Source: an uncultured virus (IMG/VR IMGVR_UViG_3300037840_000505) (lineage: Duplodnaviria; Heunggongvirae; Uroviricota; Caudoviricetes). From it: 20,000 nt of DNA. A program made the translations under genes and the position numbers. Positions 1 through 16,766 of this stretch are shown in pieces. The number at the start of each line of letters is the position of its first letter. The first letter of the stretch is position 1. Location of the stretch: IMG/VR virus record IMGVR_UViG_3300037840_000505. One strand, given 5' to 3'. The notes below the pieces were generated by a model that did no database searches, was not told where the DNA came from, and saw only the letters and a list, made by a program, of their open reading frames with translations.

Positions 1-867
1 TGCCTCATCGCTGGATCGGCCGCCTTCGATCGGCAGCACAAAGGAACGCTGCGCCGGTGGCGGCTGGTGCTTGCGTTTGGCGCTCAGCACCTCGAGATGC
101 TTTTTGACCCATTTCGGCATGGGATGCGCCTTGCGGTCACGAGCGAACGCCACGATGGCGCTATAGGGCAGCGCCTCTTCGATCGCGCTCATCTGAGGAT
201 AGCCGATCTCGATCCCGAAGAGCAGCGTCGCCTGGGCCCAGTTCACCGTCCATTGCTGGGCTGGCGTCAACGCTGGCTCAAGCTCCGCGTCGCCAAGCCT
301 CTTTATATCGTTATAGTTATCTACGTTTACGGGATTTTGGGAATGTGACGCCTTCCCGTGACGCGGCGCAACACCGCGGCCGGGAACGCCATCTGTTTGA
401 TATCGCGTCGGTTTATAATCCGTGAGGCGCGCTATCCCCGTCACGTCTCGCGTCACATGTGACGCTTGCGCCGTCACCGAAGCGTCACCAGCGTCACGCC
501 CGTCACTCGCTGTGACGGTGGATAACCCGGGGGACAACTCGGCGGCTTTCCGCCGTGCGCGCAACGCTCGCATGCGCCGCGTGCCCGGCCGCAGCATGGC
601 TTCGGCCGGCGCTTCCGGCGCATCGTCGACCAGGCGCCCGTCTTCGATCATGCCCAGATGCTCGAGCGCGCCCAGCGCACGGGCCGCCGCGCCTTCCCCG
701 ATGCTGATGCGCTCCGAGAGATAGGCGGTACGTCCCGCCATCGGCAGATCGGCGAGTTCCGGGCTGTCGCGCAGCTCGGCGCGGATCGCCAGGATGACCG
801 AGCGCGGCAACCGCGCGTGCCGCGCTGCAGCGACACAGAGCAGGTGCGCTTTGAGGCAATCACACAT
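1..867 (-). CDS. Phage replication initiator (lambda O-like), running off the left edge
   Basis: Manual translation: stop-free from ATG 867 to the window edge (MCDCLKAHLL...YLSERISIGEGAAARALGALEHLGMIEDG...RRMRALRARRK...VTASDGRDAGDASVTAQASHVTRDVT...). N-terminal wHTH-like segment, basic helix, then an iteron-coded VT-rich linker. GAGGG RBS upstream. Not in the ORF track. Confidence 0.75.
   Translation of the reverse strand, partial: MCDCLKAHLLCVAAARHARLPRSVILAIRAELRDSPELADLPMAGRTAYLSERISIGEGAAARALGALEHLGMIEDGRLVDDAPEAPAEAMLRPGTRRMRALRARRKAAELSPGLSTVTASDGRDAGDASVTAQASHVTRDVTGIARLTDYKPTRYQTDGVPGRGVAPRHGKASHSQNPVNVDNYNDIKRLGDAELEPALTPAQQWTVNWAQATLLFGIEIGYPQMSAIEEALPYSAIVAFARDRKAHPMPKWVKKHLEVLSAKRKHQPPPAQRSFVLPIEGGRSSDEA
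301..537. repeat. Putative replication origin: about 10 CGTCAC/GTGACG iterons, AT-rich tract and DnaA-box-like pair
   Basis: CGTCAC or its complement near 345, 358, 439, 451, 459, 472, 483, 492, 501, 512; perfect palindrome GCGTCACATGTGACGC 450-465; AT-rich 301-345; TTATCCACC (517-525, minus) and TTGTCCCCC (529-537, minus) 3 bp apart. Confidence 0.7.
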
Positions 868-894
868 TGGCGCATTCCCTCGCGAAAATAGCTG

Positions 895-922
895 TTGACA
901 GGTGACAGAATGTCACTATGCT
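895..922 (+). promoter_or_regulatory. Sigma70-type promoter with a palindromic operator in the spacer
   Basis: TTGACA (895-900), 16 bp, TATGCT (917-922); inverted repeat GTGACA-gaa-TGTCAC at 902-916. Confidence 0.75.
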
Positions 923-933
923 TTGACCCGTTC

Positions 934-968
934 GCCGCGGGCTGCAACCCCGGCACTCACCAACGGAG
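934..968 (+). promoter_or_regulatory. CTGCAA-loop hairpin copy 1 plus CCAACGGAG RBS
   Basis: GCCG(C)GGG-CTGCAA-CCC-CGGC 934-954; CCAACGGAG 960-968; ATG 976. Confidence 0.65.
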
Positions 969-975
969 TAACGCG

Positions 976-1152
976 ATGAGCGATCTTTCCATGTCGGTCG
1001 GGCGCGATTACCGCACCTCGAGCCAGTACGAATATGTGATCTACCGCGATGAGCGCGTTGTCGCGCGGCAGGGTTTTTACCGCAACTACAGCCAAGCCAA
1101 ACGCGCCGGGCTGGCAGCCGCGGCGAAGCTCACCGTTAAGACGGAGGCTTGA
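976..1152 (+). CDS. Small hypothetical protein (58 aa), first gene of the cassette
   Basis: GGAG RBS 7 nt before ATG 976; MSDLSMSVGRDY...TEA. Confidence 0.75.
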   Translation: MSDLSMSVGRDYRTSSQYEYVIYRDERVVARQGFYRNYSQAKRAGLAAAAKLTVKTEA

Positions 1153-1155
1153 GCC

Positions 1156-1386
1156 ATGACCATACATTTGAGCGTCGATCCCGATGCCTCGCTGCTGGCT
1201 CGGCTCTACGAAGTCGATATTCAGCGCTGCGGCGAGCACTGGGGAACCTTGAGCACCATCGCGTTGAGCCCGATGCGCGCCTGCGAGATTGCCGAGCGCA
1301 AGGCATTCGAGGCCAACGCCCGCGCCGGCGATCTCTCGGACTGGTTCGCCAGTGCCGTGCGCGAAGTCACCGACGAGGAGGGTTGA
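1156..1386 (+). CDS. Small acidic hypothetical protein (76 aa)
   Basis: GGAGG RBS; follows the previous stop by 3 nt. Confidence 0.75.
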   Translation: MTIHLSVDPDASLLARLYEVDIQRCGEHWGTLSTIALSPMRACEIAERKAFEANARAGDLSDWFASAVREVTDEEG

Positions 1387-1389
1387 GCT

Positions 1390-1599
1390 ATGAACTACGC
1401 AATCGAGTGCCGGCGGGTGCACACTCGCGGCCATTGGCTGTTTCTCGGCAATCATCGGTGCGACTTGGCGACCGCGAAATGCGTTGCGCAAGACACCGCG
1501 ACCGAATTGCAGCGCGAAACGCGGGTTGTGAATTATGGGAAAACCTTTCGCATCTTTGCCGAGTTTAGCGCGCTCGGGCAGCCCTTGCGGCCAGAATAG
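1390..1599 (+). CDS. Small hypothetical protein (69 aa)
   Basis: GGAGG RBS; follows the previous stop by 3 nt. Confidence 0.7.
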   Translation: MNYAIECRRVHTRGHWLFLGNHRCDLATAKCVAQDTATELQRETRVVNYGKTFRIFAEFSALGQPLRPE

Positions 1600-1604
1600 C
1601 GCGA

Positions 1605-1647
1605 CCCTGCTGTCTCGCCCGTACCTGGTGCGGGCGAGGTGGCAGGG
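1605..1647 (+). other. 20-bp intergenic RNA hairpin
   Basis: Arms 1605-1624 and 1628-1647 pair fully with 4 G-U wobbles on the + strand. Confidence 0.6.
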
Positions 1648-1667
1648 CCGTCCGGCTCTGTACCCTG

Positions 1668-1699
1668 GCGCCGCCTGCAAGCGGTGCGACCCAACGGAG
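1668..1699 (+). promoter_or_regulatory. CTGCAA-loop hairpin copy 2 plus CCAACGGAG RBS
   Basis: GCGCCGC-CTGCAA-GCGGTGC 1668-1687; CCAACGGAG 1691-1699; ATG 1708. Confidence 0.65.
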
Positions 1700-1707
1700 G
1701 ATCTACG

Positions 1708-2577
1708 ATGTACGCCAACACCATTTACGACGCCCGCGCTCGCTTCGACGGTTCCGCTCGCGCGATGACCGAGGACGAAATGCGCCGCAAGGCACCTTCG
1801 ATCTTCGCGACCCAAGCGCACGAAAGCCGCTCCGAACGCTTTGCGCCCATCCCCACGATCGACGTCTTGCGCGGGCTGCAGGAAGAGGGATTTTACCCGC
1901 TCGCCTGCCGCCAGGCACTTACCCGCGTCCCGGGCAAGGAGGATTTCACCAAGCACATGATCCGCCTGCGCCGATTGGATCAGGACGCCGCCTATAAAGT
2001 CGGCGACACGGTTTGCGAGATCGTTCTCAAAAATGCCAATGACGGCACGTCGGCCTATGATCTGATGGCCGGATTGTTCCGCATCCGGTGCTTGAACAGC
2101 CTTGTCGCGCAAACCGGGACGATAGACACCGTCAAGGTGCGGCACTCGGGCGACGTGCAAGGCAAGGTGATCGAGGGGACCTATCACGTGCTCGAGGAGG
2201 CGCAGAAAGCTTTGGCCGCACCGCAGGACTGGAGCCAGCTCACCATGGGACGCGACGCCAAGACGGTTTTTGCGGAAGCGGCGCACGTGCTGCGCTTCGG
2301 TGACGCGGAGGGTAATGTCACGACGCCGATCGCCGCGGACCAGCTGCTCAGCCCCCGGCGCTACGATGACCGGGCGGACGATCTGTGGACGACCTTCAAT
2401 GTCGTGCAGGAGAACACCATCAGGGGCGGCTTGCATGCCTGGGGACGCGACGCCAATAACCACCGGCGCCGCACCACAACCCGCGAGGTGAAGGGCATCG
2501 ACCAGGACGTGAAGCTGAATAAAGCGCTTTTTGTCCTTGCCGATCGGATGGCGCATATCCTCAAATCGGCCGCCTAA
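1708..2577 (+). CDS. DUF932 domain protein
   Basis: Motifs APSIFA..AHESRSERF.PIPT, FTKHMIRLR, EIVLKNANDGTSAYDLMAGLFRIRCLNSLV, DLWTTFNVVQEN.IRGG, GIDQDVKLNKAL; ATG 1708 with GGAGG RBS. Confidence 0.92.
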   Translation: MYANTIYDARARFDGSARAMTEDEMRRKAPSIFATQAHESRSERFAPIPTIDVLRGLQEEGFYPLACRQALTRVPGKEDFTKHMIRLRRLDQDAAYKVGDTVCEIVLKNANDGTSAYDLMAGLFRIRCLNSLVAQTGTIDTVKVRHSGDVQGKVIEGTYHVLEEAQKALAAPQDWSQLTMGRDAKTVFAEAAHVLRFGDAEGNVTTPIAADQLLSPRRYDDRADDLWTTFNVVQENTIRGGLHAWGRDANNHRRRTTTREVKGIDQDVKLNKALFVLADRMAHILKSAA

Positions 2578-2589
2578 CCACGCAACGCA

Positions 2590-2627
2590 CGGGCGTCCTG
2601 GCTGCAACCAGGCGCCCGCCTTTTTTT
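2590..2627 (+). terminator. Intrinsic terminator-like hairpin whose loop is CTGCAA (copy 3)
   Basis: CGGGCG(T)CCTGG-CTGCAA-CCAGG-CGCCCG 2590-2618 followed by CC and T7, then CGGAG RBS. Confidence 0.7.
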
Positions 2628-2640
2628 CGGAGCACAGGCA

Positions 2641-2850
2641 ATGACGCTGTACGAAGCCTATTTGGCCGGCTGGCAAAGCTGCTGCGATGGGGTTGACGGC
2701 CGATATTGGTTTACGCGACCGCAGGACGTGGAACGCGAGCCCGCGCTGAGACGCGCGTGGCAACAAGGATGGAGCGACGCATTCGAGCGCGAAGAAGAGG
2801 ACGAAGAGCCGTTGCCCGAAAGCTTCCTGTCGTTGGAAGATCAGACGTAA
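2641..2850 (+). CDS. Rmf/CrpP-fold-like small protein with an acidic tail
   Basis: AYLAGW...RRAWQQGW pattern resembles the ribosome modulation factor fold; GGAG RBS. Confidence 0.55.
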   Translation: MTLYEAYLAGWQSCCDGVDGRYWFTRPQDVEREPALRRAWQQGWSDAFEREEEDEEPLPESFLSLEDQT

Positions 2851-2858
2851 GCGCGGTC

Positions 2859-2921
2859 GCGGGCGGCGCCCCTGCAAGGGCCCGCCCGCTGCCCGCATTA
2901 TCCCTCGCGACGCCAACGGAG
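2859..2921 (+). promoter_or_regulatory. CTGCAA-loop hairpin copy 4 plus CCAACGGAG
   Basis: GCGGGCGG(C)GCCC-CTGCAA-GGGC-CCGCCCGC 2859-2889; CCAACGGAG 2913-2921. Confidence 0.65.
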
Positions 2922-2959
2922 CCGTCGGGAGGGGATACGAGAGAAAAGGGGATATCACG

Positions 2960-3178
2960 ATGTCAGCAGCGGAATTCAAGGCATGGCGCGAGCGTCTGGG
3001 GTTGAGCCAGCGCGGCGCCGCGGCGCGGCTTGGCCTCTCCAAGCGCACGATCATCCGCTACGAGAAAGGCACGCACCGGGTCAACCGTCATGTCGCGTTG
3101 TCCTGCGCGATTGCCGAAAGCATGGTCAAGCCTCACCCGAAGGCCGCGCGCGCGGCGCTGCAGCCCGTCGAGGAATAG
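2960..3178 (+). CDS. XRE-family helix-turn-helix regulator (Aca-like position)
   Basis: EFKAWRERLGLSQRGAAARLGLSKRTIIRYEKG HTH signature; last gene of the cassette. Confidence 0.9.
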   Translation: MSAAEFKAWRERLGLSQRGAAARLGLSKRTIIRYEKGTHRVNRHVALSCAIAESMVKPHPKAARAALQPVEE

Positions 3179-3543
3179 GTGAGCGGCGCATTGCCGAGCT
3201 TCAGGGGCGAACCCGGATCCAGCCGGGCTCGAGGATCATCGGTAAACCTCGGCCCTTCCCATACCGGGTGAGGAATGCGCGGCCTCACTCCGCCCATGTT
3301 GCCGGTGCGCGCGCGACCCGCTTGCGCCTTTTTGATACGGTCGGCATTGGCCTCGGCCTTTTCCTCCCGAGTGCGCTCGCGCAGTTCGATGCCTTTGTCG
3401 CGCAGGCGCTTCAATCGGCCACCGATCGCGAATTCGTTGCGCCGCGGCATCTCTGCCGCGATCTCGAAGGCGCGCTTGCCGGCGTTCCACGCGAGGATCA
3501 GGATTTCGTCTTCAACCGAGGACCATTTAGGGGATGTGCTCAT
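3133..3543 (-). CDS. GcrA-like / Myb-like HTH protein
   Basis: WSSVEDEILILAWNAGKRAFEIAAEMPRRNEFAIGGRLKRL resembles the GcrA N-terminal HTH. Confidence 0.65.
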   Translation of the reverse strand: MSTSPKWSSVEDEILILAWNAGKRAFEIAAEMPRRNEFAIGGRLKRLRDKGIELRERTREEKAEANADRIKKAQAGRARTGNMGGVRPRIPHPVWEGPRFTDDPRARLDPGSPLKLGNAPLTYSSTGCSAARAAFG

Positions 3544-3941
3544 AGTAGCCTCTTGCCAAATTCGAGGGTTTCCAGGACGGCTTTAGCCTGCTCGCGGAGT
3601 TCGGCGCGCTCGCGATCGGTCCTTGCGTGATTGATCCGGCTTTTGAGGTGCGAGGGCATCATGGACCAGTGGCCGGAGCACCAGCTACGGCCCAAAGGCA
3701 CGTCGCGCTCGCATCCGATCGCCTGGCATTTCGGCAAAATGGGCTCGCGTCGGTGGATTGGCGTCGTATCATCAGGCGAGAGTTTGAGGACGTCGTCACC
3801 CAGCGGCGGCAGCACTTCGAGCCCGTCGGCGCACGCATCGGGAGTGCGGCAGGCCGCGGGCAAGCGGATCTGCTGGTCGTCGATCGTCTCGGCAACCGCC
3901 AGGCATATAGGGCACTGGAAGAATTCGTGGACGACGCTCAC
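3540..3941 (-). CDS. Cys-rich hypothetical protein (putative Zn-binding)
   Basis: CPIC and CQAIGC...WCSGHW motifs; 4-bp overlaps with both neighbours. Confidence 0.7.
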   Translation of the reverse strand: MSVVHEFFQCPICLAVAETIDDQQIRLPAACRTPDACADGLEVLPPLGDDVLKLSPDDTTPIHRREPILPKCQAIGCERDVPLGRSWCSGHWSMMPSHLKSRINHARTDRERAELREQAKAVLETLEFGKRLL

Positions 3942-4282
3942 GGCCCGGCGTCCTTGCGGCGATGCCGAGCGATTTCGCGCTCGATGTGCACCTGCGCCTT
4001 CAAGAGATCGAGTAGCGCGCCGTTGCCCGGCTTGCGGCCGGCGCGCACGATGTATTTGACGATGGCGCCGCAGTTGTAGTTGAGCCCGAACGCCTCGATC
4101 ACATCGCGGATGTCATGACCGTCGGCGATGTAGTAATCCGCCGTCGCTGCCCACGGCCGAGGTGCGAAATCGCCGGTAATGCTACCCGGCTTCGCAGGCG
4201 CCGCGACGTTTTCGGATTGCCAATTCGGGCAGAGCGAGTGCTCGCTGAAGCACCGGCAATCCGGGCCGATCAAGCAGCTCAT
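3938..4282 (-). CDS. DUF3310 domain protein
   Basis: YY...DIRDVIEAFGLNYNCGAIVKYIVRAGRK...DLLKA; ATG 4282 overlaps the upstream stop. Confidence 0.8.
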   Translation of the reverse strand: MSCLIGPDCRCFSEHSLCPNWQSENVAAPAKPGSITGDFAPRPWAATADYYIADGHDIRDVIEAFGLNYNCGAIVKYIVRAGRKPGNGALLDLLKAQVHIEREIARHRRKDAGP

Positions 4283-4530
4283 TCGACCGCTCCGGGCTGA
4301 GCACGGGGAGCGAGGCTCGGGCGAGCGAGCTTCCCATTGCGCTGCGCTACAGCCCTTGTCGCTAGTACCGGGTCGATCCGGTCCAGCGCTGCGACATCGG
4401 CAAAGAGCGCTACACACCCATCGCAGATATGCGGGGCCAAGGCTCCCAGCCCCTGGAAGAGGAGGGATACCTCGCTCTTCCCCTGGGCACAGAAAGAGCA
4501 ATGGAGGTTGAGGTTGGGGCGGGTGGTCAT
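4279..4530 (-). CDS. ClpX C4-type zinc finger protein
   Basis: LHCSFC...EVSLLFQG...HICDGCV signature, no ATPase domain. Confidence 0.85.
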   Translation of the reverse strand: MTTRPNLNLHCSFCAQGKSEVSLLFQGLGALAPHICDGCVALFADVAALDRIDPVLATRAVAQRNGKLARPSLAPRAQPGAVE

Positions 4531-5213
4531 GCCGGATCATCCAGCCAGAAGGTGATCGGAGGGCCTTCATGCCGCCAATCCCAGAGATACCAGGCATAGG
4601 GGAAACGGGGGCTAGCCTTGTCGTCATCCGACCATTTGGGGCGGCGCGGGAGGATCAGCTTTGCCGCGTAGGGCCAGGCGAAGAGCGGGCGGTTGATGGC
4701 TGGCGCGTCGAATTCGTGGCGCTGCAGGATCGCGACCTTCCCTCTCCAAGGCTCAGTCACGATCAGCGCCTGCCGAACGAATTCACGCGCGAGATCGAAT
4801 GGCGGATTGGTGACGACCGCCGGCATTCGTTGCGGCCGGCGCCGGTCGTGCACGAAGTCGATTATCTGTGTGTCCGGCCAGCCGTAATCATGGATATCCG
4901 AGGCGAAGACGCGATATCCGGCGCGCTCCAGTTCGGCTGCCATGCGGCCATCGCCAACCGCCGGCTCCCACACTTCAACTACCGTATCGGGCTGTGTGAC
5001 CGCAGTACCCGGCAACTGAAGTCGAAACGACACTTCCGCCAGCAGCGCCCGCGTCACCCACGGTTCGGTAAAGTACGCATCCCTGGCATTGCGCACATAC
5101 CCGGCTTCACCGTGACTCGCGCTCTTGCGTGCCGGGGCGACCGGACCGAGGAGATCGGCCTCATCCGGCCGCTCGGCGCTGCGCTTGAAGGTGGCGTTGC
5201 CGAGCGGGCTCAT
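4527..5213 (-). CDS. Phage DNA amino-methyltransferase (probably N6-adenine)
   Basis: DAYFTEPW, motif I-like WEPAVGDG, catalytic VTNPPF, YAWYLW. Confidence 0.85.
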   Translation of the reverse strand: MSPLGNATFKRSAERPDEADLLGPVAPARKSASHGEAGYVRNARDAYFTEPWVTRALLAEVSFRLQLPGTAVTQPDTVVEVWEPAVGDGRMAAELERAGYRVFASDIHDYGWPDTQIIDFVHDRRRPQRMPAVVTNPPFDLAREFVRQALIVTEPWRGKVAILQRHEFDAPAINRPLFAWPYAAKLILPRRPKWSDDDKASPRFPYAWYLWDWRHEGPPITFWLDDPA

Positions 5214-5272
5214 CGCCGCACCCAATTACTGGCGTCGCCCGGGCTGCGCTCGAACGATTTCACGACGCTCAT
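5210..5272 (-). CDS. 20-aa coupling mini-ORF
   Basis: MSVVKSFERSPGDASNWVRR*, ATGA overlaps at both ends. Confidence 0.4.
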   Translation of the reverse strand: MSVVKSFERSPGDASNWVRR

Positions 5273-5505
5273 TGCCGGTAATCCCGCATATGGCCTATCA
5301 CGCGGCCCTCGCGCCAGATCGCGCCATCCGGCTCGACATGCGCATAGCTCGGCGGCGGCTTCAGCGCGGTGCCGTCGCGGTCAACCTGGTCGAGGTAGCA
5401 CAGCGCGCCGCTTCCGTCGTCGTGCCTGACGTAGCGCACCGGGACGCCGTCGATGGTGAATTCGCCGATCACCTCGCCGAGCTTCACGCCACAGGGCTCA
5501 GCCAT
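5269..5505 (-). CDS. Hypothetical protein
   Basis: Coupled to neighbours; GGAGG upstream. Confidence 0.7.
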   Translation of the reverse strand: MAEPCGVKLGEVIGEFTIDGVPVRYVRHDDGSGALCYLDQVDRDGTALKPPPSYAHVEPDGAIWREGRVIGHMRDYRQ

Positions 5506-5719
5506 TGCCGCCCTCCAGCGCTCGCCGCTCTACCTCGCGACCGAGATCAGTAAGAACGAATCGATTGGAGCGCGGATCGTATATCGTCCAACCACGCTCG
5601 ATGCTCCGGCGCAACCGAGCGCGCCGAGCTTTCGAGATTGGCCGCCGCGCAGGAGCCCGATCAAACGCCCGCATCTGCTCGCCGATCGACAGCACGGGAA
5701 AAGGGGCCTGCTCAGCCAT
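5498..5719 (-). CDS. Hypothetical protein (possible short winged helix)
   Basis: MAEQAPF...LRRSIERGW...FVLTDLGRE; starts at ATG 5719 overlapping the upstream stop. Confidence 0.65.
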   Translation of the reverse strand: MAEQAPFPVLSIGEQMRAFDRAPARRPISKARRARLRRSIERGWTIYDPRSNRFVLTDLGREVERRALEGGNG

Positions 5720-5843
5720 TGCCGCCCGCCCGCGCCAGGGCCATGCGCTTCCTTGTTGCGGCGGCGCGTTTCGCCAGGAGCTGGCCGGCGACACGCGCCT
5801 TGCTGCCGAACTGGCGATGAACTGTAAGGCTGCCGGCGCTCAT
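5712..5843 (-). CDS. Small basic hypothetical protein (43 aa)
   Basis: Manual: MSAGSLTVHRQFGSKARVAGQLLAKRAAATRKRMALARAGGNG*, fills the gap with coupled ends. Confidence 0.55.
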   Translation of the reverse strand: MSAGSLTVHRQFGSKARVAGQLLAKRAAATRKRMALARAGGNG

Positions 5844-6082
5844 CGCCGCACCCTGCGGATCGGGATGATCTGAGCCTCGGGTTTGGGCTCAACCAGCTGC
5901 AGCCAGAACGGCAACCCCTTGTCGTTCAACCGGTCGATCAGCCGCTGGGCTTTTGATTCGGCGTCCTGTTGGGTCTCTCCGAGGACGATCAATTCCGGGC
6001 AGAGGTCATTATCCTTGAAGACCTGGCAGAGACACGCCGGGGATTGACCGAAGGAGGGGCCGAGGCGGTAGGGCTTCGTCAT
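5840..6082 (-). CDS. Hypothetical protein
   Basis: ATGA overlaps at both ends. Confidence 0.7.
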   Translation of the reverse strand: MTKPYRLGPSFGQSPACLCQVFKDNDLCPELIVLGETQQDAESKAQRLIDRLNDKGLPFWLQLVEPKPEAQIIPIRRVRR

Positions 6083-7263
6083 GCCGGCGCCCCCTTCGGT
6101 AGGGCGAGGGGTTTCAGCCCATCAGCGGCCCTCAGCTGGTTCGCTAGATCGTAGAGGCGCTGCAGCGAGCTCGGCTTGCCGTCGAGCACCACTTCGACTT
6201 TCTCAAGCCAAACCGTTCGGCCATCTTGCGCGTCGGAAGGCTGGCCCTCGCGAATGATCGCGCTTCGGCCTTTGCCGCGCAGAAACGCCGCGACCTGCTC
6301 CGGCGATTGCACCAGGCTCACGCCCTTCTCGGCGATGAATTTGGCAATCGCGTCTCCGTCGGGCCCGGCGGGCTTCGGTTTCAGCGGCGGGGCTGTTGGC
6401 CGCAACGGCACCGCGGCGCGCGGGACAACCGGTCTAGCCGGTTCCGGCGCAGCGAGCGGCTTGGCTGCGGCGGCGCGTTGCGGCGTCAGCGCTCCGCGCA
6501 GCCCCGCGACGAGGAGCGGGATCGCGCCGGAACCACCGAGCCCGAGCGGGCTTGTCGCCGCCCATCGCTCGGGGCCGAGTTTTTCGAGCGCCCGGCGCAG
6601 CTCTTCGGCGCTTCCGTTTTCGTTCAGGAACCGCGCCGCCGCCTCAAAGAACGCGCCGTGCAATACTCCCCGTTCGCGGCCCCAGCACGCCATCAGCACC
6701 GCGATGGCAGAACCGAGATTAGCCGCGCCCTGGGTTTTCAGCGCCCTGCGCAGCGACGGGATCGCCGCGGTTTTGCCTGGCGGCACCTGTTTGATCGCCA
6801 TCGCGTAACCGAGCAATTCGAGACCGGCCGCATCGGCAAGGCGCTTGAGTTCTACCGCCTCCGGGCGCCCCGCGAGCAATTCCCCCTTGAATAGAGCTTG
6901 TGGGCTAAGCCCAAGGCGGTCGCGGTTCGCCGACGCGAAGATTTCAGCGGCCTGGTCAGTCGAGGTGACGCCGACGACGACCGCCGGCACCAGCGGCTGG
7001 CCGACCGCCCGCGCCGCGGCGACGCGGTGCTGGCCGTCGATAATTTCCCAACGGCCGCCCTCCTTCGCCATGACGATGACGACCTGAAACTTCGCCCAGC
7101 GAAAATTCGCGGCTATTCGGGCGATATGACGCTGCGAGGCAGGACGGTCGATCGTGCGCTGATACGCCTCATCGACGTCGAGCCGGTCGACCGGGAGCCA
7201 CGCGAGCTCCGGACGCGGACCCGGACCGGGCGCGTCGGCAGCGTTCAGCACCGCGTCCACCAC
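6079..7263 (-). CDS. ParB/Srx N-terminal domain protein
   Basis: LAWLPVDRLDVDEAYQR...WEIIDGQHRVAAA...VPAVV; Pro/Ala linker and an extra C-terminal domain. Confidence 0.85.
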   Translation of the reverse strand: MVDAVLNAADAPGPGPRPELAWLPVDRLDVDEAYQRTIDRPASQRHIARIAANFRWAKFQVVIVMAKEGGRWEIIDGQHRVAAARAVGQPLVPAVVVGVTSTDQAAEIFASANRDRLGLSPQALFKGELLAGRPEAVELKRLADAAGLELLGYAMAIKQVPPGKTAAIPSLRRALKTQGAANLGSAIAVLMACWGRERGVLHGAFFEAAARFLNENGSAEELRRALEKLGPERWAATSPLGLGGSGAIPLLVAGLRGALTPQRAAAAKPLAAPEPARPVVPRAAVPLRPTAPPLKPKPAGPDGDAIAKFIAEKGVSLVQSPEQVAAFLRGKGRSAIIREGQPSDAQDGRTVWLEKVEVVLDGKPSSLQRLYDLANQLRAADGLKPLALPKGAPA

Positions 7264-7511
7264 GGACCTTCAGCGGGTTCTTCGGCGAGTTCTTTATCAC
7301 CCTCGGCGCTCAGCCAGTTGCCTTCCCTGCGGGTGACCGCGCGCGTCCCGGTGACCCGGTTGACGATCTCGACCTCGCCTTCGGGCCAATGCTCGTCCGC
7401 CCATCCTTGGGCGCCGAGGAGCGACTTGAAATGCTTGGGTCCATGGATGCCGCGCCTGGCGCTCCACGGCCGCTCCAGGCGCCTATCGTGCTGTTCCTTG
7501 CGGCTCAGCAT
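7245..7511 (-). CDS. Hypothetical protein
   Basis: ATG 7511 overlaps the stop of the upstream small ORF. Confidence 0.6.
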   Translation of the reverse strand: MLSRKEQHDRRLERPWSARRGIHGPKHFKSLLGAQGWADEHWPEGEVEIVNRVTGTRAVTRREGNWLSAEGDKELAEEPAEGPWWTRC

Positions 7512-7609
7512 CGCCTCAGCCACAGATAAAGCTTCTCAAGACAGCCCATCGCAAAGGCAAACCCGCAGCTAATACTGACGAGCGAGACCAGGAGGAAAAG
7601 ATCGCTCAC
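7505..7609 (-). CDS. Small membrane peptide (34 aa)
   Basis: Manual: MSDLFLLVSLVSISCGFAFAMGCLEKLYLWLRRC*, GTGA overlap with the upstream gene. Confidence 0.55.
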   Translation of the reverse strand: MSDLFLLVSLVSISCGFAFAMGCLEKLYLWLRRC

Positions 7610-8130
7610 GGATGCGCCGCCTCGGCTTCGGTCTCGCGCTTGACGAGCAAAACCGAGAACCCTCCCCGGCCGAAAAGATAATTGAGCGCGCGCCGCCAGT
7701 TAAGGGAACGCAGTTCATCCGCTCCCGAGTAGGCGATGCCTTGATCCGCCAGAGCCGCGCGGATGACGTGAAGGACAACCGATTTGCCGGCACCTTCGGG
7801 CCCGCTTACCTCGACGGTTACTGGGTGCAGCTGGCGTGCGGCCGGCGGCGGGGCGCGATCTACGTCTGACCCCTCCCCGCCGGCCTTCTCCTCGCTCGGT
7901 GTATCCCAGGATGCGGCGACTAACTCAACCACGTCCCCGTATAGTTGGGTGGCAATGCCCAGCGCGTCCTCTGCGCGCGTCGGCGCCATCGGGCACGGTA
8001 TCGGCTCGGGCAGCTGTGGCGCCGCGGATTCGCCGTTGCGCCAGCGCTCCAAGGCTTCGGCGCGCCGGTTGAACTCGGGCGCAGCCATATTGGCTTTGGC
8101 ACGGAAGCGAGTCTTGAAGAAGGCCGTCAT
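7606..8130 (-). CDS. Hypothetical protein with a C-terminal P-loop motif
   Basis: VEVSGPEGAGKS Walker A-like motif in a short C-terminal domain. Confidence 0.65.
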   Translation of the reverse strand: MTAFFKTRFRAKANMAAPEFNRRAEALERWRNGESAAPQLPEPIPCPMAPTRAEDALGIATQLYGDVVELVAASWDTPSEEKAGGEGSDVDRAPPPAARQLHPVTVEVSGPEGAGKSVVLHVIRAALADQGIAYSGADELRSLNWRRALNYLFGRGGFSVLLVKRETEAEAAHP

Positions 8131-8540
8131 GCGACAGCCTCAAGATCGGCTGCCTCGATCCTCGGCGGGAGCGCCGGGAGGGCGAGCTCGACCCTGCCGT
8201 CATCGGCCTTCCATTGCCGGCGCATGCCGTGCGACAGCGGCCACAGGCTCTCGGCGGCGCCGGGAAACTCTTTGATATGCTCTTCGATATCTTCGAGGAC
8301 ATGATCGAAGACCCAGCCCCCGCAGTTGAGCACGAGCCATTCCGTCGCGACCGTGCAGTGCCGGCAGGTGAAATGCGTCAGCGGGTCACCGTCGTAGACC
8401 ATGAAAATGCGGCGATACCGCTCACCCGGCTCGATCGCGCGACGACACTCGCTACAGCTGTAGGGCTTGCGCGCGATCGGGTTTACTTCGGACCTAACCG
8501 TTGGGCCGTCACCGTCATAGTCGCCGCCCATGCACATCAC
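8127..8540 (-). CDS. Zn-finger phage protein
   Basis: ARKPYSCSECRRAIEPGERY...FTCRHC. Confidence 0.8.
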   Translation of the reverse strand: MMCMGGDYDGDGPTVRSEVNPIARKPYSCSECRRAIEPGERYRRIFMVYDGDPLTHFTCRHCTVATEWLVLNCGGWVFDHVLEDIEEHIKEFPGAAESLWPLSHGMRRQWKADDGRVELALPALPPRIEAADLEAVA

Positions 8541-8713
8541 GCAGCCTCCGGGCTCTGGAAGAACCCGCGCGCGTGAAGAAAGGCGCGCCCGTCATCGTCG
8601 AGCGGCTCCAACGCGAGGCACTGGGCGACCCAGCTTTCGTCGCCGGCGAGCGCGCGCAGCGCGTCGTAGAGCTGTTCGCCCGTGGGGCGCTGGCGCTGGG
8701 TGGTGCGGTCCAC
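8537..8713 (-). CDS. Hypothetical protein (58 aa)
   Basis: Manual: GTG 8713 with AAGGGG RBS, MDRTTQRQRPTGEQLYDALRALAG...PEAA*, stop overlaps the next start. Confidence 0.6.
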   Translation of the reverse strand: MDRTTQRQRPTGEQLYDALRALAGDESWVAQCLALEPLDDDGRAFLHARGFFQSPEAA

Positions 8714-8791
8714 GGTTTCCCCCTTCTCTTCAGCCCAATAACCGGGTGCCTCTTTGCGCCATCGCCTCGGGGGAGGAGGCGATTCGCCCGA

Positions 8792-9028
8792 CTACGCCAC
8801 CCAACTCCCGCGATTGCGGGGATCGTGCCGCTCCTCAAAGATCTCGTCCGGAGCATCGATGCCGCGCTCTTTCGCGAGCGCCTTAACCTTGCGCATGAGC
8901 CGTGGCGGCAGGCATCCTGCCCGGCGCCATTGGTAGACGGCGCCGACCGTCACTCCGGTCAATTCGGCGAACGGCTTGGTGCCGCCGAACGCGTCGATCA
9001 GTTCGTTGGTTTGCGCTATCAAGCCCAT
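8792..9028 (-). CDS. Cro-like transcriptional regulator
   Basis: LIDAFGGTKPFAELTGVTVGAVYQWRRAGCLPP; first gene of a divergent operon; AGGAGG upstream. Confidence 0.85.
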   Translation of the reverse strand: MGLIAQTNELIDAFGGTKPFAELTGVTVGAVYQWRRAGCLPPRLMRKVKALAKERGIDAPDEIFEERHDPRNRGSWVA

Positions 9029-9137
9029 AGGCCGCTTTTCCTCCTCTCGATCGCATTTGTCAATTGCCTTTTAAGTGTGAGGTCACCTATTCTCATTTTG
9101 ATGATGATCCCTCCCTCCCCACGGAAAGGCATCCCCC
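9029..9137. promoter_or_regulatory. Divergent promoter region
   Basis: AT-rich; TTGACA on minus at 9058-9063; TTGCCT-N18-TATTCT on plus at 9064-9093 containing the GTGA-gg-TCAC inverted repeat 9077-9086. Confidence 0.55.
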
Positions 9138-9389
9138 ATGCCCCAGTTACTGCAAGGCGCACCGCTCCCCGGTATGCAGCTCGGTTCCCGCTTTGGCCGG
9201 CGCCAGGCCTTCGATTTGCGCCAGCGGGTGACGATCAGCGGCACTCTCGTCCATTCGACCGACAAGAGCTATCTCATAGCGGGAACCAAGGCGCGGGCCT
9301 TTGTGCCGCGCGGGTTGGTCAGCCACAGCAAGGAAAACGGCACCTTCACGATGCCGGCTTGGCTCGCCCGGCATCGGGGGTTTGTCTGA
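9138..9389 (+). CDS. Small phage hypothetical protein
   Basis: AAAGG RBS; TDKSYLI...FVPR...TMPAWLA..RG pattern seen in small phage proteins; TGATG coupling. Confidence 0.7.
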   Translation: MPQLLQGAPLPGMQLGSRFGRRQAFDLRQRVTISGTLVHSTDKSYLIAGTKARAFVPRGLVSHSKENGTFTMPAWLARHRGFV

Positions 9390-9841
9390 TGCCCGGCTGG
9401 GTGAAGCTCGGCAATATCGCCGTGGTACGCCAGCCCTACCCGCTCCCCAAACGCCGGAAGCGCGAGAAGCTCGGCGTCCAGAAGGCGCCGCAGCGGATCT
9501 GGCCGAGGCATCGCCGGTGGGTGAAGAGCCATGAATGCTGCGTCGCCGGCTGCCGGGCCCTCGAGGTTGATTTCGCGCATATCAGGACGGCAGCGACAGC
9601 CGGGATGGCGCTCAAGAGCCACGACAGTTTCGGCGTACCCCTCTGCCGGTTGCATCATGACGAGCAGCACCGCTGCGGTCAGGGGACGTTCGAGGACCGC
9701 CACGGGATAGACCTCGACCAGATCGCGGCCGAACTGGTCCGCACCTCACCCGACCACAAGATGCGCCTGATGCTGATGCTGGAGGCGAGCGCAGCCTCGG
9801 AGACGATTGCGAACCCGGTTGTGGGGAAAGGCTTCATCTGA
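9389..9841 (+). CDS. DUF968 / Ref-like HNH-type nuclease
   Basis: HRRWVKSHECCVAGC...AHIR...KSHD.FGVPLCRLHHDEQH..G..TFE; true start ATG 9389. Confidence 0.85.
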   Translation: MPGWVKLGNIAVVRQPYPLPKRRKREKLGVQKAPQRIWPRHRRWVKSHECCVAGCRALEVDFAHIRTAATAGMALKSHDSFGVPLCRLHHDEQHRCGQGTFEDRHGIDLDQIAAELVRTSPDHKMRLMLMLEASAASETIANPVVGKGFI

Positions 9842-10308
9842 TGAAGACCGCCCTGAGTGCGATTTTGCTGATCGGGATGACCGCGGGCGCCTGGATCCAC
9901 GCCTTCTTCCAGGCGCCGCCTCCGCCGCAGAGGTTTCCCGAGTTGGAGTTCTTCAAGGCGGGCGAGATCGTGCCGGTCTACATCGCCGCGGCCTCTGGCG
10001 CAGTCCTGCGGTTCACCACCGACACCGTGGGGTGGCACGACAGGGATATGTGGGAGGTCAGGCCGGTCAAGGCGCGCAATGACGATATCGGCGACGGCGA
10101 CTATACCATCGCCGGCCTCTTTCGCGCCGAACGCCTCAGCGACGCCGATTGGGTGATCGAGGATGGGCGCATGAATATGTTTGTCGGCTGCCCCGCCGAC
10201 ATGCGCCAGCGCGCCGATAAAGACGATCACTGCGATGACCGCGCCTCAGCCTTTCACGATCTCGTTCCGCATCACCGCTGGTGGATGCACGGAGAGGGCG
10301 GCGAGTGA
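9841..10308 (+). CDS. Membrane-anchored or secreted hypothetical protein
   Basis: N-terminal hydrophobic segment; TGATG coupling. Confidence 0.7.
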   Translation: MKTALSAILLIGMTAGAWIHAFFQAPPPPQRFPELEFFKAGEIVPVYIAAASGAVLRFTTDTVGWHDRDMWEVRPVKARNDDIGDGDYTIAGLFRAERLSDADWVIEDGRMNMFVGCPADMRQRADKDDHCDDRASAFHDLVPHHRWWMHGEGGE

Positions 10309-10348
10309 TGGACCATTTTTGGCTCGAGCTTGAGAAAGGTTTCATCTG

Positions 10349-10462
10349 ATGAAGACCGTTCTCATCATCGGCAGCCTCGCCATCGCCAGTTGGCTTCTGG
10401 TCGGCGCGATCTTCTTTGTCGTCTTCACCCTCGCCAGTGCGATTTTTGGAGGAGCGGCATGA
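10349..10462 (+). CDS. Small membrane peptide (37 aa)
   Basis: Manual: MKTVLIIGSLAIASWLLVGAIFFVVFTLASAIFGGAA*, coupled ends. Confidence 0.6.
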   Translation: MKTVLIIGSLAIASWLLVGAIFFVVFTLASAIFGGAA

Positions 10463-10818
10463 CCAAGATCACCGAGAAGGAGTGGAACGTCGACGGTGAT
10501 GACCGACCGGGCATGGCGTGGAACCGGCACATCGTCCTCGCCGAAAACGCCGACATGCGCATCTGCTTCATGGCGCACGGCAGCGGCGTCAGCGATGACG
10601 AATTTGCCGAAGCGGCCCTGCTGATCGCTGGCGCACCGGCTCTCTTGCGTGCCGCACTGTTGCTCGAAGCGGCCGAGGAGGTACACGCCAATTGTCCGGA
10701 ATGCGACGGTGAAGGCGTACCGGAACTTTGTCCCGCGTGTTTCCCGCTTTTTGACGATGCCCGGATTGCCCGGCGCGCGGCGCTGGAGAAAGCCGCCAAT
10801 GGCGCGGTGATCGGATGA
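10459..10818 (+). CDS. Hypothetical protein with a CxxC..CxxC motif
   Basis: ATG 10459 with GGAGGAG RBS; A.LIAGAPALL motif typical of phage early proteins; CPEC...CPAC. Confidence 0.75.
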   Translation: MTKITEKEWNVDGDDRPGMAWNRHIVLAENADMRICFMAHGSGVSDDEFAEAALLIAGAPALLRAALLLEAAEEVHANCPECDGEGVPELCPACFPLFDDARIARRAALEKAANGAVIG

Positions 10819-11006
10819 ACGACAACACCCCAGCCGATCCCCTCATCGAAACCCGCATCAAGGGCGGGCTCCAGCATGGCGGTTTTGGCGTCGACTACCT
10901 GGACGGCGCCAATCTGGTAGAGCTGCACGGCGCCTACAGTATCGCTGAACTGGAAGCCGTTGCCCGGTATATGCGCGAGAAGGGAGCCCGACCCGATGGC
11001 GAATAG
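10815..11006 (+). CDS. Hypothetical protein
   Basis: ATGA overlap with the previous gene. Confidence 0.7.
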   Translation: MNDNTPADPLIETRIKGGLQHGGFGVDYLDGANLVELHGAYSIAELEAVARYMREKGARPDGE

Positions 11007-11283
11007 CGAACTCATCTCGCCGCCTGATCGGATTTCCGCCGGGTACGAGGATCGCCCCGGGCGCTTGCCGCAGACGATCGTCGCGGAGGTGTCAAAGAAC
11101 TGGCCGGGCGACCCCGAGGACTTGCTGTCGATGCGCTTCGAGGAGGTGATCGAGGTCAATCGGGAGCGCGGATACCAGCTCCAGTCATGGCACCTCAGCC
11201 GCGTCTACGTCGAAGAGGCCCTCAACGAGACGATCATCGCCGTCTTCGTGTGGGAAAAGGTAGCTGAGCCCGATGGCGAATAG
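10996..11283 (+). CDS. Hypothetical protein
   Basis: ATG 10996 with GGAG RBS; FEEVIEVNRERGYQLQSW...ETIIAVF. Confidence 0.7.
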   Translation: MANSELISPPDRISAGYEDRPGRLPQTIVAEVSKNWPGDPEDLLSMRFEEVIEVNRERGYQLQSWHLSRVYVEEALNETIIAVFVWEKVAEPDGE

Positions 11284-11641
11284 CGCTTTCGACCCGTGCA
11301 CCGAATGCGGCGCAAAATGGTATGGACCTCACGCGCCGAGATGCTCGATCGCGGCCGAGAAGTTTCTTAAGACCTTAGCCCAAGATGGCCGGGCAGTGGC
11401 GGCCGATAATCCGCGCTGCCCAAGCTGCGGTGCCGTCGAGGAGCGTTGGACCGAGACGGTGCCGCGCCATTCGGGCGATGGCGATAGCTGGTCGATCTCG
11501 TGCGGCGATTGCGGGCGCGACTACGAGGTCGAATTCCTTGTCAGCTACAGCTTTCGCGTGCGCGCGACCAAGCCAGAGCCCATCCCAGCGCCGGGGGTAT
11601 CCGGCGCACATGACCAACCCCCAGGGGAGACAAAGCCATGA
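11273..11641 (+). CDS. Zn-ribbon hypothetical protein
   Basis: CTEC..H...C, CPSC and CGDC motifs. Confidence 0.7.
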   Translation: MANSAFDPCTECGAKWYGPHAPRCSIAAEKFLKTLAQDGRAVAADNPRCPSCGAVEERWTETVPRHSGDGDSWSISCGDCGRDYEVEFLVSYSFRVRATKPEPIPAPGVSGAHDQPPGETKP

Positions 11642-11928
11642 CGAGAGACGAACTAGCAAAGCAACTGGCGGACGCGGGCCTTCTGCCATTGTCGCGCGCC
11701 GATACAATCATTCGCGCGATCGAGCACCGGATTTCCGAGGCATTGGCGCGGGGCGAGAGCGTCGAATTCTACGGGTTCGGCCGCTTTTCGGCGGTGACGA
11801 CCTTGCCGCGCACGGGAACCAATCCGCGCTCTGGCGAACCGATCCAAATCGGCCAGAAGAAGCGCGTCACCTTTAAGCCCGGCTCGGTCTTGAAGCGCGC
11901 GGTCGACCCAACACGCCAAGCCGCCTGA
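11638..11928 (+). CDS. hup: HU/IHF family DNA-binding protein
   Basis: MTRDELAKQLA...ALARGESVEFYGFGRF...RTGTNPRSGEPIQI...FKPGSVLKRAV. Confidence 0.95.
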   Translation: MTRDELAKQLADAGLLPLSRADTIIRAIEHRISEALARGESVEFYGFGRFSAVTTLPRTGTNPRSGEPIQIGQKKRVTFKPGSVLKRAVDPTRQAA

Positions 11929-12066
11929 ACCCCGCACGGCAGGAGGCTTGATCGTGGCCGGCCGCACTTTTGCCCTTGACGGGTAGCGGGCCGGCCGATG
12001 GCCGGCCTGAGTGCGATCCCTGAAACAGCGCGGAATTCCTAGCTTCTGCGCTAGTTAGGAGGTTAA

Positions 12067-12258
12067 ATGGTTTCCGACTTTGTTTTGGTATCGTCGGCCG
12101 TGTTGGCACTGGCACCTGAAAACCCGATGACCGCGCTCGCAAGCGCGTGGGCATCGCGCCATTACGGGATAGACGTTCCTTCCGTTGCAAGCTGGAGCCG
12201 CGTGCTGCAATTCTGGTTTCTGGTAATTGCAACTGGCTTCATCGAAAAACTACTTTAA
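12067..12258 (+). CDS. Small hydrophobic protein (63 aa)
   Basis: AGGAGG RBS 4 nt upstream; hydrophobic C-terminus. Confidence 0.45.
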   Translation: MVSDFVLVSSAVLALAPENPMTALASAWASRHYGIDVPSVASWSRVLQFWFLVIATGFIEKLL

Positions 12259-12298
12259 CCCGGCCGGCGCCCGGCCGGCCGTTCACCGGAGGAAGGAC

Positions 12299-12793
12299 AT
12301 GACCAGGCTACCGCTCGCGCTTTTGTTCGTCTTTGCGCTTGGCGCGGGAGCGCAGGCCCAGCAATGCAAGCTCGGGCCGATACCGGATCAGAGTGCGGGA
12401 TGTACGCCGGGGCTCGCGGCCTCAACCAATGAGGCGGATGTCTGCTCGCATGCCGGGGGAACCTACAGCCAGCGCCATCGACTGACGCAGAACCCCGAGA
12501 CGAAGCTCGAGGTCATGACCCGCTACGGGGTGCCCTTTGCGCAAGCCGGGAAGTTCGAGGACGACCACGACCTGCCGCTTTGCCTCGGAGGGTCCGATTC
12601 GGTCGCGAACCGCTGGCCGCAATCGCGCACGGGAGATTGGACCGCGGCGGAAAAAGACCAGCTCGAAGCCTTTGCCTGCCGCGAGGTCTGCGCCGGTCAT
12701 GTGCCGCTGGCAACCGCGCAGGGCTGGTTTCTTGCCCCCGCCGATTGGCGCCAGGCATACCGTGCTATGGCAGCGGGGACGCTGGTACCCTGA
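12299..12793 (+). CDS. Secreted HNH-like domain protein
   Basis: Signal peptide MTRLPLALLFVFALGAGAQA; EDDHDLPLCLGGSD...NRWPQ...KDQLE...C..VC.G...AQ. Confidence 0.75.
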   Translation: MTRLPLALLFVFALGAGAQAQQCKLGPIPDQSAGCTPGLAASTNEADVCSHAGGTYSQRHRLTQNPETKLEVMTRYGVPFAQAGKFEDDHDLPLCLGGSDSVANRWPQSRTGDWTAAEKDQLEAFACREVCAGHVPLATAQGWFLAPADWRQAYRAMAAGTLVP

Positions 12794-12908
12794 TCTCGTG
12801 ATTGAGCGGTCCGCGCTCGCTGCCTTCCGGCACGAACGGGCCGAGCGAAGGCGCGCAGCCGCACAGCCCCAACAGCAAGAACGCCAAGAAGAAGGCGAGC
12901 GCCCGCAT
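12765..12908 (-). CDS. Small lipoprotein (47 aa)
   Basis: Manual: MRALAFFLAFLLLGLCGCAPSLG...PLP*, lipobox-like LCGC; starts 1 nt after the lipase stop. Confidence 0.55.
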   Translation of the reverse strand: MRALAFFLAFLLLGLCGCAPSLGPFVPEGSERGPLNHEIRVPASPLP

Positions 12909-12909
12909 T

Positions 12910-13578
12910 TTACCCCAGCGCTCGCGCGCCCTTCTGGTAGAGCGCGATCGAGTGCCATTCGGCGTCGGGACTGATCTTCGAGAGGATCGTCGGCGGCGCG
13001 TTCGGATCGGGCGCCTCGTTGATCGCGGTGAAGGGCACGAGGTCGCGCCATTCGAGCCAGGGCGCGAACGGTTCGGGCACCTCCGGCACCGGGTCCGGAC
13101 CGTTGCGCAGGCTCGTCACCGGGACGCCCGAGGATTTGACCAGCGTCACCAAGTGGATCATGCCGGGTTTGGGGCAGCCGCAGAGGGCCACTTGAGCGAC
13201 GGGCAGATCATCGAGGATCGCCATCGCCGCAAGCTCCGCGGCGTGCGCGCCGCCGAGGCTGTGTCCGCTATAGGCCAATTTTGCCAAGGGGCGCAGCGCC
13301 TGGCAGATGGCCTCGTGCGCGGGGACGAGGCCGATTCCGAAGCCGTAGGGGACGAGACCGAGCGAGGGATAGCCGGGAACCGCGCGCGAGCCCTCCGATA
13401 TCCCGTCGATCCACCAATCCCTCAGATCGTCCGACCCGCGACAGTCGACGATATCGAAATCGCCCACCTGGCGGATCGCCCAGGCGATGCCGGCGGTTTG
13501 CTGCTGGACCGCGAAATGCCCCACGGGCGGTGCGTAATGCGCCGCCATCGTGTCGACCAGCTCAGGGAGCGGGATCAC
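12910..13578 (-). CDS. Lipase class 3 (alpha/beta hydrolase)
   Basis: CRGSDDLRDW, GHSLGG nucleophile elbow, GCPKPG, DPVPEVP, C-terminal His; GTG 13578 overlaps the upstream stop. Confidence 0.88.
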   Translation of the reverse strand: MIPLPELVDTMAAHYAPPVGHFAVQQQTAGIAWAIRQVGDFDIVDCRGSDDLRDWWIDGISEGSRAVPGYPSLGLVPYGFGIGLVPAHEAICQALRPLAKLAYSGHSLGGAHAAELAAMAILDDLPVAQVALCGCPKPGMIHLVTLVKSSGVPVTSLRNGPDPVPEVPEPFAPWLEWRDLVPFTAINEAPDPNAPPTILSKISPDAEWHSIALYQKGARALG

Positions 13579-14547: not shown

Positions 14548-14565
14548 GGGTTCAGTCCTTTCGGT

Positions 14566-14817: not shown

Positions 14818-14869
14818 GACCGATCCTTTCGGGTTGAGGTGCGTCAGGCAAACGGTGGATCATCGATGT

Positions 14870-15211: not shown

Positions 15212-15316
15212 TGCAACTCCTTGTATATATCGGAACGGCGCAAAATACCACCGTCAGCGTGACGATCGCCGATTCTGGGATGACCATGCGGGCCGATATC
15301 GGAATTCCGATGACGC

Positions 15317-16759: not shown

Positions 16760-16766
16760 GAAAAGA

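Follow-up and report, generated by a model that had tools for sequence, protein, structure and literature searches.

We analysed a 20,000-nt stretch of DNA from an uncultured virus (IMG/VR record IMGVR_UViG_3300037840_000505), hereafter the window, which is viral and has a GC content of 64.4%. At positions 895 to 3178 it carries a block of six + strand genes encoding four small proteins, a DUF932 protein and an XRE-type helix-turn-helix (HTH) protein. A first reading made from the letters alone (the sequence-only reading) had placed this unit between minus-strand genes, and both flanking genes are indeed on the minus strand. The block is real and fairly ordinary; it is of a familiar kind, the early accessory operon of phages with its small regulator. 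Our preferred reading, which we hold tentatively, is that it is an early accessory transcription unit of a soil phage of about 65 kb, set against the gene direction of the replication module and autoregulated by its HTH protein. The features of the block, with its open reading frames (ORFs), protein lengths in amino acids (aa), isoelectric points (pI) and GC contents at third codon positions (GC3), are as follows.

895..922, + strand: sigma-70-type promoter, TTGACA-16 nt-TATGCT, 10/12, the best site in 1-9000
902..916, no strand assigned: perfect inverted repeat GTGACA-GAA-TGTCAC, candidate operator, filling the promoter spacer
976..1152, + strand: ORF 976, 58 aa, basic (pI 9.7), lead gene, undescribed small-protein family
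1156..1386, + strand: ORF 1156, 76 aa, acidic (pI 4.55), GC3 79%, Shine-Dalgarno sequence GGAGG
1390..1599, + strand: ORF 1390, 69 aa, basic (pI 9.05), GC3 71%
1601..1651, + strand: long hairpin between ORF 1390 and DUF932, 20-bp core with four G-U pairs
1708..2577, + strand: DUF932 (PF06067) protein, 289 aa, Pfam E 1.3e-36, phrog_12094 E 4.6e-102
2590..2627, + strand: intrinsic-terminator-like hairpin and a run of seven T (T7), 11 bp with one bulge, centroid -22 kcal/mol
2641..2850, + strand: ORF 2641, 69 aa, very acidic (pI 4.06), tryptophan-rich, small family
2851..2896, + strand: strong GC hairpin without a T run, after ORF 2641, z -2.73 for 2851-2959
2960..3178, + strand: XRE-type HTH protein, 72 aa, pI 10.9, candidate repressor, HTH_31 E 9.9e-10, HTH_3 E 2.2e-9

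Seven further viral loci encode a relative of ORF 976. A promoter of at least 9/12 was located within 160 nt of the first gene in five of the eight ORF-976-led units (the window, L111, L112, L114 and L115), where the background is 0.038 per 160 nt. Relatives of the window HTH were found in three of the seven loci and in none of 82 DUF932 loci (Fisher p 3e-4). L111 has the order promoter, ORF-976 relative, 103-aa ORF and 60-aa HTH, and the start of the HTH gene overlaps the preceding stop. The HTH relative of L110 is divergent and 0.8 kb from the ORF-976 relative, and that of L116 lies 3.7 kb away on the other strand. Because promoters recur in five of eight units, HTH relatives in three of seven loci and a coupled HTH in L111, these data support an HTH-linked, probably autoregulated early unit.

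Promoter, inverted repeat and transcript ends

The promoter at 895-922 is the sole 10/12 sigma-70-type match on both strands of 1-9000 and is located within the 108-bp gap immediately 5' of the first + strand gene. Sites of at least 9/12 were not enriched overall in the scan (3 sites versus 1.5 +/- 1.3 in shuffles). The near-consensus promoter and the inverted repeat between its -35 and -10 hexamers had both been pointed out by the sequence-only reading, and both are present. The repeat had no second match in the window with 2 mismatches allowed, and a third TGACA half-site is supplied by the -35 hexamer. Chance alone places a perfect 6+6 repeat with 0-8 nt between its arms inside 4.4% of the 28-nt spans and 1.2% of the 18-nt spans of this window. 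Against this chance level, the repeat in the promoter spacer is suggestive, not overwhelming.

A moron is an autonomous promoter-gene-terminator unit between the genes of another operon. The block might likewise be an unregulated unit of this kind, in which the promoter is constitutive, the dyad is due to chance and the HTH protein is an unrelated downstream regulator. By its predicted signals the block has its own promoter and a hairpin-T7 between opposite-strand genes, and promoter, genes and terminator all run opposite to the flanks. A chance dyad in 4.4% of promoter-sized spans and the occurrence of this HTH type in many unrelated arrays of small phage genes are consistent with such a unit too. 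We nevertheless consider it unlikely, given that the HTH co-occurs with the ORF-976 family (3/7 versus 0/82) and is the coupled last gene of the ORF-976 unit in L111. In a sample of 401 genomes from the order that includes the Labrys genome with a DUF932 relative, no member of the ORF-976 family was found, which does not indicate a prophage-expressed role; in the positive control, the family model recovered 4/4 viral records known to carry the family. This absence fits infection-time expression better than a prophage moron, an argument limited to those hosts, as the 401 genomes are a sample of that order.

The four small ORFs of 58-76 aa announced by the sequence-only reading, two of them acidic, were all found. 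A Shine-Dalgarno sequence is present ahead of all six ORFs of the block. GC3 of the four small ORFs is 69-79% and the GC content at second codon positions is 46-49%, as in the neighbouring genes, and all six ORFs have the coding-type GC3 excess. An antisense ORF at 916-3054 (712 aa) has a shadow pattern without that excess.

None of the three hairpins of the block was flagged by a rule-based terminator scan. The hairpin at 1601-1651 is specific to the + strand RNA because of its four G-U pairs, and the segment 1600-1707 folds at -61.6 kcal/mol (z -3.99, 0/200 shuffles equally stable). With a mononucleotide-shuffle control on 130 nt, the hairpin before DUF932 gave z -1.57 in the window, and the region upstream of DUF932 in relatives gave z below -2.5 in 6 of 34. 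There is no T run behind this hairpin, which may be a processing site, a stabiliser or an attenuator. Directly 3' of DUF932, the hairpin 2590-2618 is followed by the T7 at 2621-2627.

The block had been described as a self-contained single operon. Because hairpins follow DUF932 and ORF 2641 and the promoter scan gave no site for ORF 2641 or the HTH gene, it is best written, judging from these signals, as four genes led by the promoter and closed by a terminator-like end, with two further genes downstream. The latter, ORF 2641 and the HTH gene, are best written as dependent on read-through or on an unrecognised promoter. The HTH gene (+) and the GcrA-like gene (-) converge and have 46 nt (3133-3178) in common, which implies that transcription of the block collides with that of the minus-strand array or that their transcripts pair as antisense RNAs.

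In the preferred reading, host sigma-70 RNA polymerase would fire the promoter at 895-922, as suggested by its sequence and by the conservation of promoters in relatives. The transcript would encode the DUF1508-like ORF 976, two genes without relatives and DUF932, and most transcripts would end at the hairpin-T7 that follows DUF932. ORF 2641 and the XRE HTH protein would come from read-through or from a weak promoter that escaped recognition. A dimer of the HTH protein would bind GTGACA-N3-TGTCAC in the promoter spacer and shut the unit off, a negative feedback like that of anti-CRISPR-associated (Aca) proteins.

Several observations weigh against this reading. The terminator-like hairpin and the second hairpin separate DUF932 from the HTH gene, and no promoter of at least 9/12 was found in the scan ahead of ORF 2641 or the HTH gene. 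The promoters of L112 and L115 are one shared promoter and so not independent. In L114, where the ORF-976 relative is followed by DUF932 and a coupled 105-aa ORF, this last ORF is weakly HTH-like (E 0.013 to the window HTH) and has no Pfam HTH match. Short dyads are present in the promoter spacers of L113 and L114 too; they differ from each other and from that of the window in sequence and spacing (N9 in L113, N7 in L114, N3 in the window), and all three may be unrelated or due to chance. The reverse association is weak: one of 37 other loci with HTH relatives (16+21) contains an ORF-976 relative, this single locus is the L110 contig again, and DUF932 was found in none of the 37. GACAG is enriched (11 occurrences versus 1.36 expected), as a motif that was chosen afterwards and in part mirrors the -35 hexamer. 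Finally, GTGAC is common to the promoter repeat and to the iteron-like repeats inside the neighbouring gene (described with the flanking genes below).

Proteins encoded by the block

At E<=1e-3 the ORF-976 family had 38 cluster representatives, of which seven reached <=1e-10, and the members looked up were all metagenomic and without a protein name. A relative with 76% identity to ORF 976 is encoded on a 64,982-bp contig. ORF 976 had no Pfam match at E<=10, and 33 family members had none at E<=0.01. A complete 59.7-kb phage carries an ORF-976 relative without DUF932. Structure prediction followed by Foldseek had been suggested by the sequence-only reading. The model of ORF 976, built from a 33-sequence alignment (pLDDT 91.5), has three strands and a helix (beta-beta-beta-alpha), and its closest folds are MmoD and the DUF1508-like HVO_2922. 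MmoD (6d7k) was the best match, with Z 7.0 and a root-mean-square deviation (rmsd) of 2.0 over 54 aligned residues. HVO_2922 (6q2z) gave a VIA Z of 5.9 (rmsd 3.4, 56 aligned) and a Foldseek probability of 0.97 with TM 0.58, and 3bid, which we take to be a DUF1508 entry, gave Z 5.0. No chain reached Z>=8, and a PDB profile search with ORF 976 returned no DUF1508 chain. 6Q2Z is described as a single DUF1508 domain (PMC11601603). The model of ORF 976 has the beta-beta-beta-alpha order of DUF1508/YegP (PF07411) proteins such as HVO_2922, and the protein differs from them in having no sequence-level match and in that MmoD scores above 6q2z. Because all Z values are under 8, the predicted DUF1508/YegP likeness is a fold-level lead, and it may be just a common small fold.

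The other small ORFs gave few relatives. Word-index searches among 5.8 billion clusters returned only ORF 1156 itself (lengths 41-133) and only ORF 1390 itself (similar-length proteins). ORF 2641 has 4 relatives at 70-77% identity. It matched Pfam RMF (PF04957) below threshold (E 0.025, 15.1 bits versus a cut-off of 27.9) over 18 residues, and the RMF-like hint had an Atlas score of 0.80, which is a lead only. A PDB profile search with ORF 2641 gave nothing relevant, and its profile found weak partial matches in metagenome contigs and, among viral contigs, only the phage's own contig.

The DUF932 and XRE HTH genes named in the sequence-only reading are both supported by Pfam matches above cut-off. 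DUF932 scored 126.9 bits (cut-off 23), and residues 37-274 were aligned on profile positions 1-226 of 227, so that it is a full-length member of the PF06067 family. Its model had pLDDT 83.9 and pTM 0.81. In the PDB, Foldseek found nothing for it at E<=0.001 (best CapZ, 4.9e-2, TM 0.22), the best Z in a VIA wide search was 6.5, with none of at least 8, and a PDB profile search was empty; in these searches DUF932 had no clear relative of solved structure. AcrIIA11 was considered as a structural match of DUF932 and rejected, its Z of 4.9 being within noise. In the literature searched no function of the DUF932 family was found, and the term was in no title or abstract. A preprint reports DUF932 mutations in an integrated plasmid following phage exposure.

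In phages, DUF932 genes were found next to genes for ERF, YqaJ, single-stranded DNA-binding protein (SSB), Enc34-type ssDNA-binding protein, DUF2800, primase, sliding clamp and methylases. The neighbours in plasmid-like and integrative loci were DUF736, TraG, ParA/VirC1, RepC, NikA and toxin-antitoxin pairs. This agrees with the earlier statement that DUF932 is common in leading or early regions, since phages, plasmids and integrative elements were found to carry it in their early or establishment regions, and the window gene is likewise in a mobile-element DNA-metabolism region. It differs in being preceded by three small genes that are common to none of the 82 relatives. The window small ORFs and HTH had no relative in 49 viral DUF932 loci (tblastn, E<=1e-3) or in 33 genomic DUF932 loci (tblastn, E<=1e-2); as judged by these searches, the cassette is not conserved as a whole. 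In-frame stops in some DUF932 relatives were considered as recoding and turned out to be alignment overruns at gene ends.

Four loci of the Roseomonas group (L077, L078, L081 and L082) have DUF932 followed by an 89-aa ORF on the same strand. In L077 (5923-7665) this ORF is followed by a 123-aa HTH_31 protein and then an H-NS-like gene, and in L078 the downstream gene begins with an ORF matching the 123-aa HTH_31 protein of L077. The L077 layout is analogous to the order DUF932, small ORF and HTH in the window, and the small ORF is without detectable homology. ParA is found close by in L080 and L081.

The HTH protein matched HTH_31 with 39 bits (cut-off 27) and HTH_3 with 37.6 bits (cut-off 23), and PADLOC gave generic HTH matches only. 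This type of HTH is typically found inside arrays of small phage ORFs and is often translationally coupled. A gene-neighbourhood survey had been proposed for its homologs; among 30 proteins flanking HTH relatives, 0 matched an anti-defence or host-takeover PHROG, and 23 of the 30 were without any PHROG.

No protein of the cassette matched a PHROG, Pfam, NCBIfam or PADLOC family with an anti-CRISPR or anti-defence role. The small ORFs had been put forward as candidate anti-defence proteins, and these libraries gave no such match for any of the four. Of the earlier picture of an autoregulated anti-defence or host-takeover operon, the regulatory part has thus gained indirect comparative support (promoters in 5/8 units, HTH relatives in 3/7 loci), while the anti-defence part still stands on layout and has no family match. 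Since genes of replication, recombination and conjugation establishment are the only other company in which DUF932 was found, the payload most likely acts on the DNA of the incoming or replicating element, or in host takeover. The block could have a role in counter-defence, but nothing found here supports one.

A bolder proposal is that the ORF-976 family and the XRE HTH, with DUF932 in some phages, form a new autoregulated 'arrival' module, in which the lead protein and the genes without relatives would inhibit host defence or DNA-metabolism proteins. We regard this as quite improbable; if true, the large DUF932 family would gain its first regulated, testable phage context. As it stands, the block is another set of hypothetical proteins in a phage early region. 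There are two modest gains, an uncatalogued small-protein family with a DUF1508-like predicted fold and a probably regulated phage context for DUF932. If the HTH protein does repress the promoter, the block would provide a synthesisable test bed of about 2.3 kb for DUF932, the new small-protein family and the two genes without relatives. The HTH could then also serve as a guilt-by-association marker in alphaproteobacterial phages, as Aca does elsewhere.

Flanking genes and genomic setting

The two genes that flank the block are as follows.

1..867, - strand: 316-aa protein, probable replication initiator, no family match, full length in L001:1958-2908
3133..3543, - strand: protein with GcrA-like N-terminal domain, 136 aa, Pfam GcrA match sub-threshold

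The 316-aa protein had no family match in the profile-library searches. Its description as a replication initiator is therefore without a family behind it, and is favoured by an iteron-like cluster inside the gene. Ten copies of GTGACG/CGTCAC are located at 345-517, where about 0.1 are expected by composition. The cluster includes the palindrome CGTCAC-AT-GTGACG and flanks an AT-rich stretch at about 395-420. By its sequence, 345-517 resembles an iteron-bearing origin within the initiator gene. The lambda O gene also contains an origin with iterons.

This cluster bears on the candidate operator. In iteron plasmids, an inverted partial iteron ahead of rep is bound by a dimer of Rep (RepE of F, RepA of pPS10), which thereby controls rep and/or a divergent unit. 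In the same way, the inverted repeat of the block might be the operator of the neighbouring initiator-like protein and not of the HTH. Its arms GTGACA/TGTCAC share 5/6 bases with the iteron-like unit, and it lies 35-49 nt upstream of the ATG of that gene at 867, so that an inverted repeat with the GTGAC core of clustered direct repeats stands before the initiator-like gene as in these plasmids. The likeness is reduced by the putative status of the window initiator, which has no replication-family match, and by the lack of a minus-strand promoter of at least 9/12 in the gap. GTGAC also showed no enrichment upstream of the other ORF-976 units (observed 3, expected 1.6), and the palindrome of the cluster has the reverse half-site orientation. 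We regard an initiator operator as a serious rival of low probability, and keep the HTH as the preferred ligand of the repeat.

The GcrA-like protein on the other side resembles GcrA in its N-terminal region only, and its match to GcrA (PF07750) is below cut-off (E 0.036, 14.9 bits versus 26.9). The resemblance noted by the sequence-only reading is thus there, at a level that Pfam does not accept. On this side of the block the minus strand encodes a ParB-like protein, a DNA methyltransferase and the GcrA-like protein, and on the other side the initiator-like protein, DUF5131 and a GapR-like protein. The last two are on a near-identical contig upstream of the window (L069:7994-9321), where a DUF5131 (Gp37/Gp68-like) gene is followed by the GapR-like DNA-binding protein. 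A DUF5131-like gene also adjoins an HTH relative in L128.

Window 1-8175 has 99.99% identity with an IMG/VR contig that extends 2,041 bases further upstream. Proteins of the window were found on 5 contigs, the longest of 65,283 bp, and the window stretch was found in two soil-metagenome DNA runs, with no RNA run listed for it. The nearest related record, G001, covers window 4634-19008 only. The phage host is likely a member of the Hyphomicrobiales, because the closest bacterial DUF932 relatives are from Labrys, Ensifer, Stappia, Bosea and Roseibium (66-73% identity). No integrase was seen across the 26 kb examined. The GC profile of the block equals that of its flanks, with no anomaly, and a direct-repeat search of 1-4000 gave weak chance families only. 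A search with the initiator-like protein for relatives without the block returned only the phage's own contig. The insertion assumed by the sequence-only reading is therefore putative.

Some other genes of the window were also recorded. At 4279-4530 (-) there is an 83-aa stand-alone ClpX C4-type zinc finger (PF06689, E 1.4e-8, above cut-off). The mechanically listed 229-aa ORF at 3938-4627 probably comprises two separate genes, one DUF3310-like (3938-4240) and the other encoding the ClpX zinc finger. As a phage version of the N-terminal domain of ClpX, the finger might interfere with the ClpXP of the host. Window 17699-19981 (-) encodes a 760-aa protein with an LPD38 'large polyvalent protein' domain, 16942-17457 (-) a SpoU-type RNA methylase and 11638-11928 (+) an HU-like protein. 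Polyvalent proteins are treated as counter-defence carriers in PMC13551039.

Comparison with acr-aca operons and morons

The sequence-only reading had likened the block to an anti-CRISPR (acr)-aca operon and proposed a comparison of the HTH with Aca families. Our comparison covered Aca1 of phage JBD30 (from its annotated record) and Aca2. DUF1870 is the HTH of Aca2 (PMC13551039). No DUF1870 domain was found in the window HTH in the Pfam search, so that by this measure it is not an Aca2 protein, and its match to JBD30 Aca1 was limited to 21 residues of the HTH motif, 13 of them identical (E 2e-5). In Pfam, JBD30 Aca1 matched HTH_24 (E 0.003), a profile set that differs from that of the window HTH. 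The JBD30 Aca1 operators and the window repeat have a common ...ACA-N-TGT... core, and their half-sites are spaced by 1 nt and 3 nt, respectively. When 50,697 phage records were searched by tblastn for the Aca comparison, 39 matched (36 Ralstonia phages, 2 Caudoviricetes sp. and 1 Campylobacter phage), and none of them is annotated as anti-CRISPR-associated.

That the block is a true acr-aca operon, in which one or more small proteins inhibit host CRISPR-Cas and the HTH is an Aca protein, is highly unlikely in our view. Like the acrIF1-aca1 operon of JBD30, the block has a strong promoter with an internal inverted repeat, small ORFs first and a downstream HTH gene on the same strand, and negative feedback is the logic that we propose for it. 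The motif identity and the shared operator core fit such an operon, and many genes in Aca-regulated operons are reported to lack annotation (PMC13551039). The block differs in having no Acr match in PHROG, Pfam, NCBIfam or PADLOC, no known CRISPR context, a single repeat only with a wider half-site spacing, another set of HTH profiles in Pfam and neither DUF1870 nor an annotated anti-CRISPR association among the matched records. It also has a 289-aa DUF932 protein and a terminator-like hairpin between promoter and HTH gene, and 'DUF932' is absent from the main text of PMC13551039.

Compared with phage morons, the block is multigenic and has a candidate operator and regulator, and its lead-gene family was not found in the 401 bacterial genomes sampled. 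It shares with them a promoter of its own, a terminator-like end, a direction opposite to that of its surroundings and a variable accessory content.

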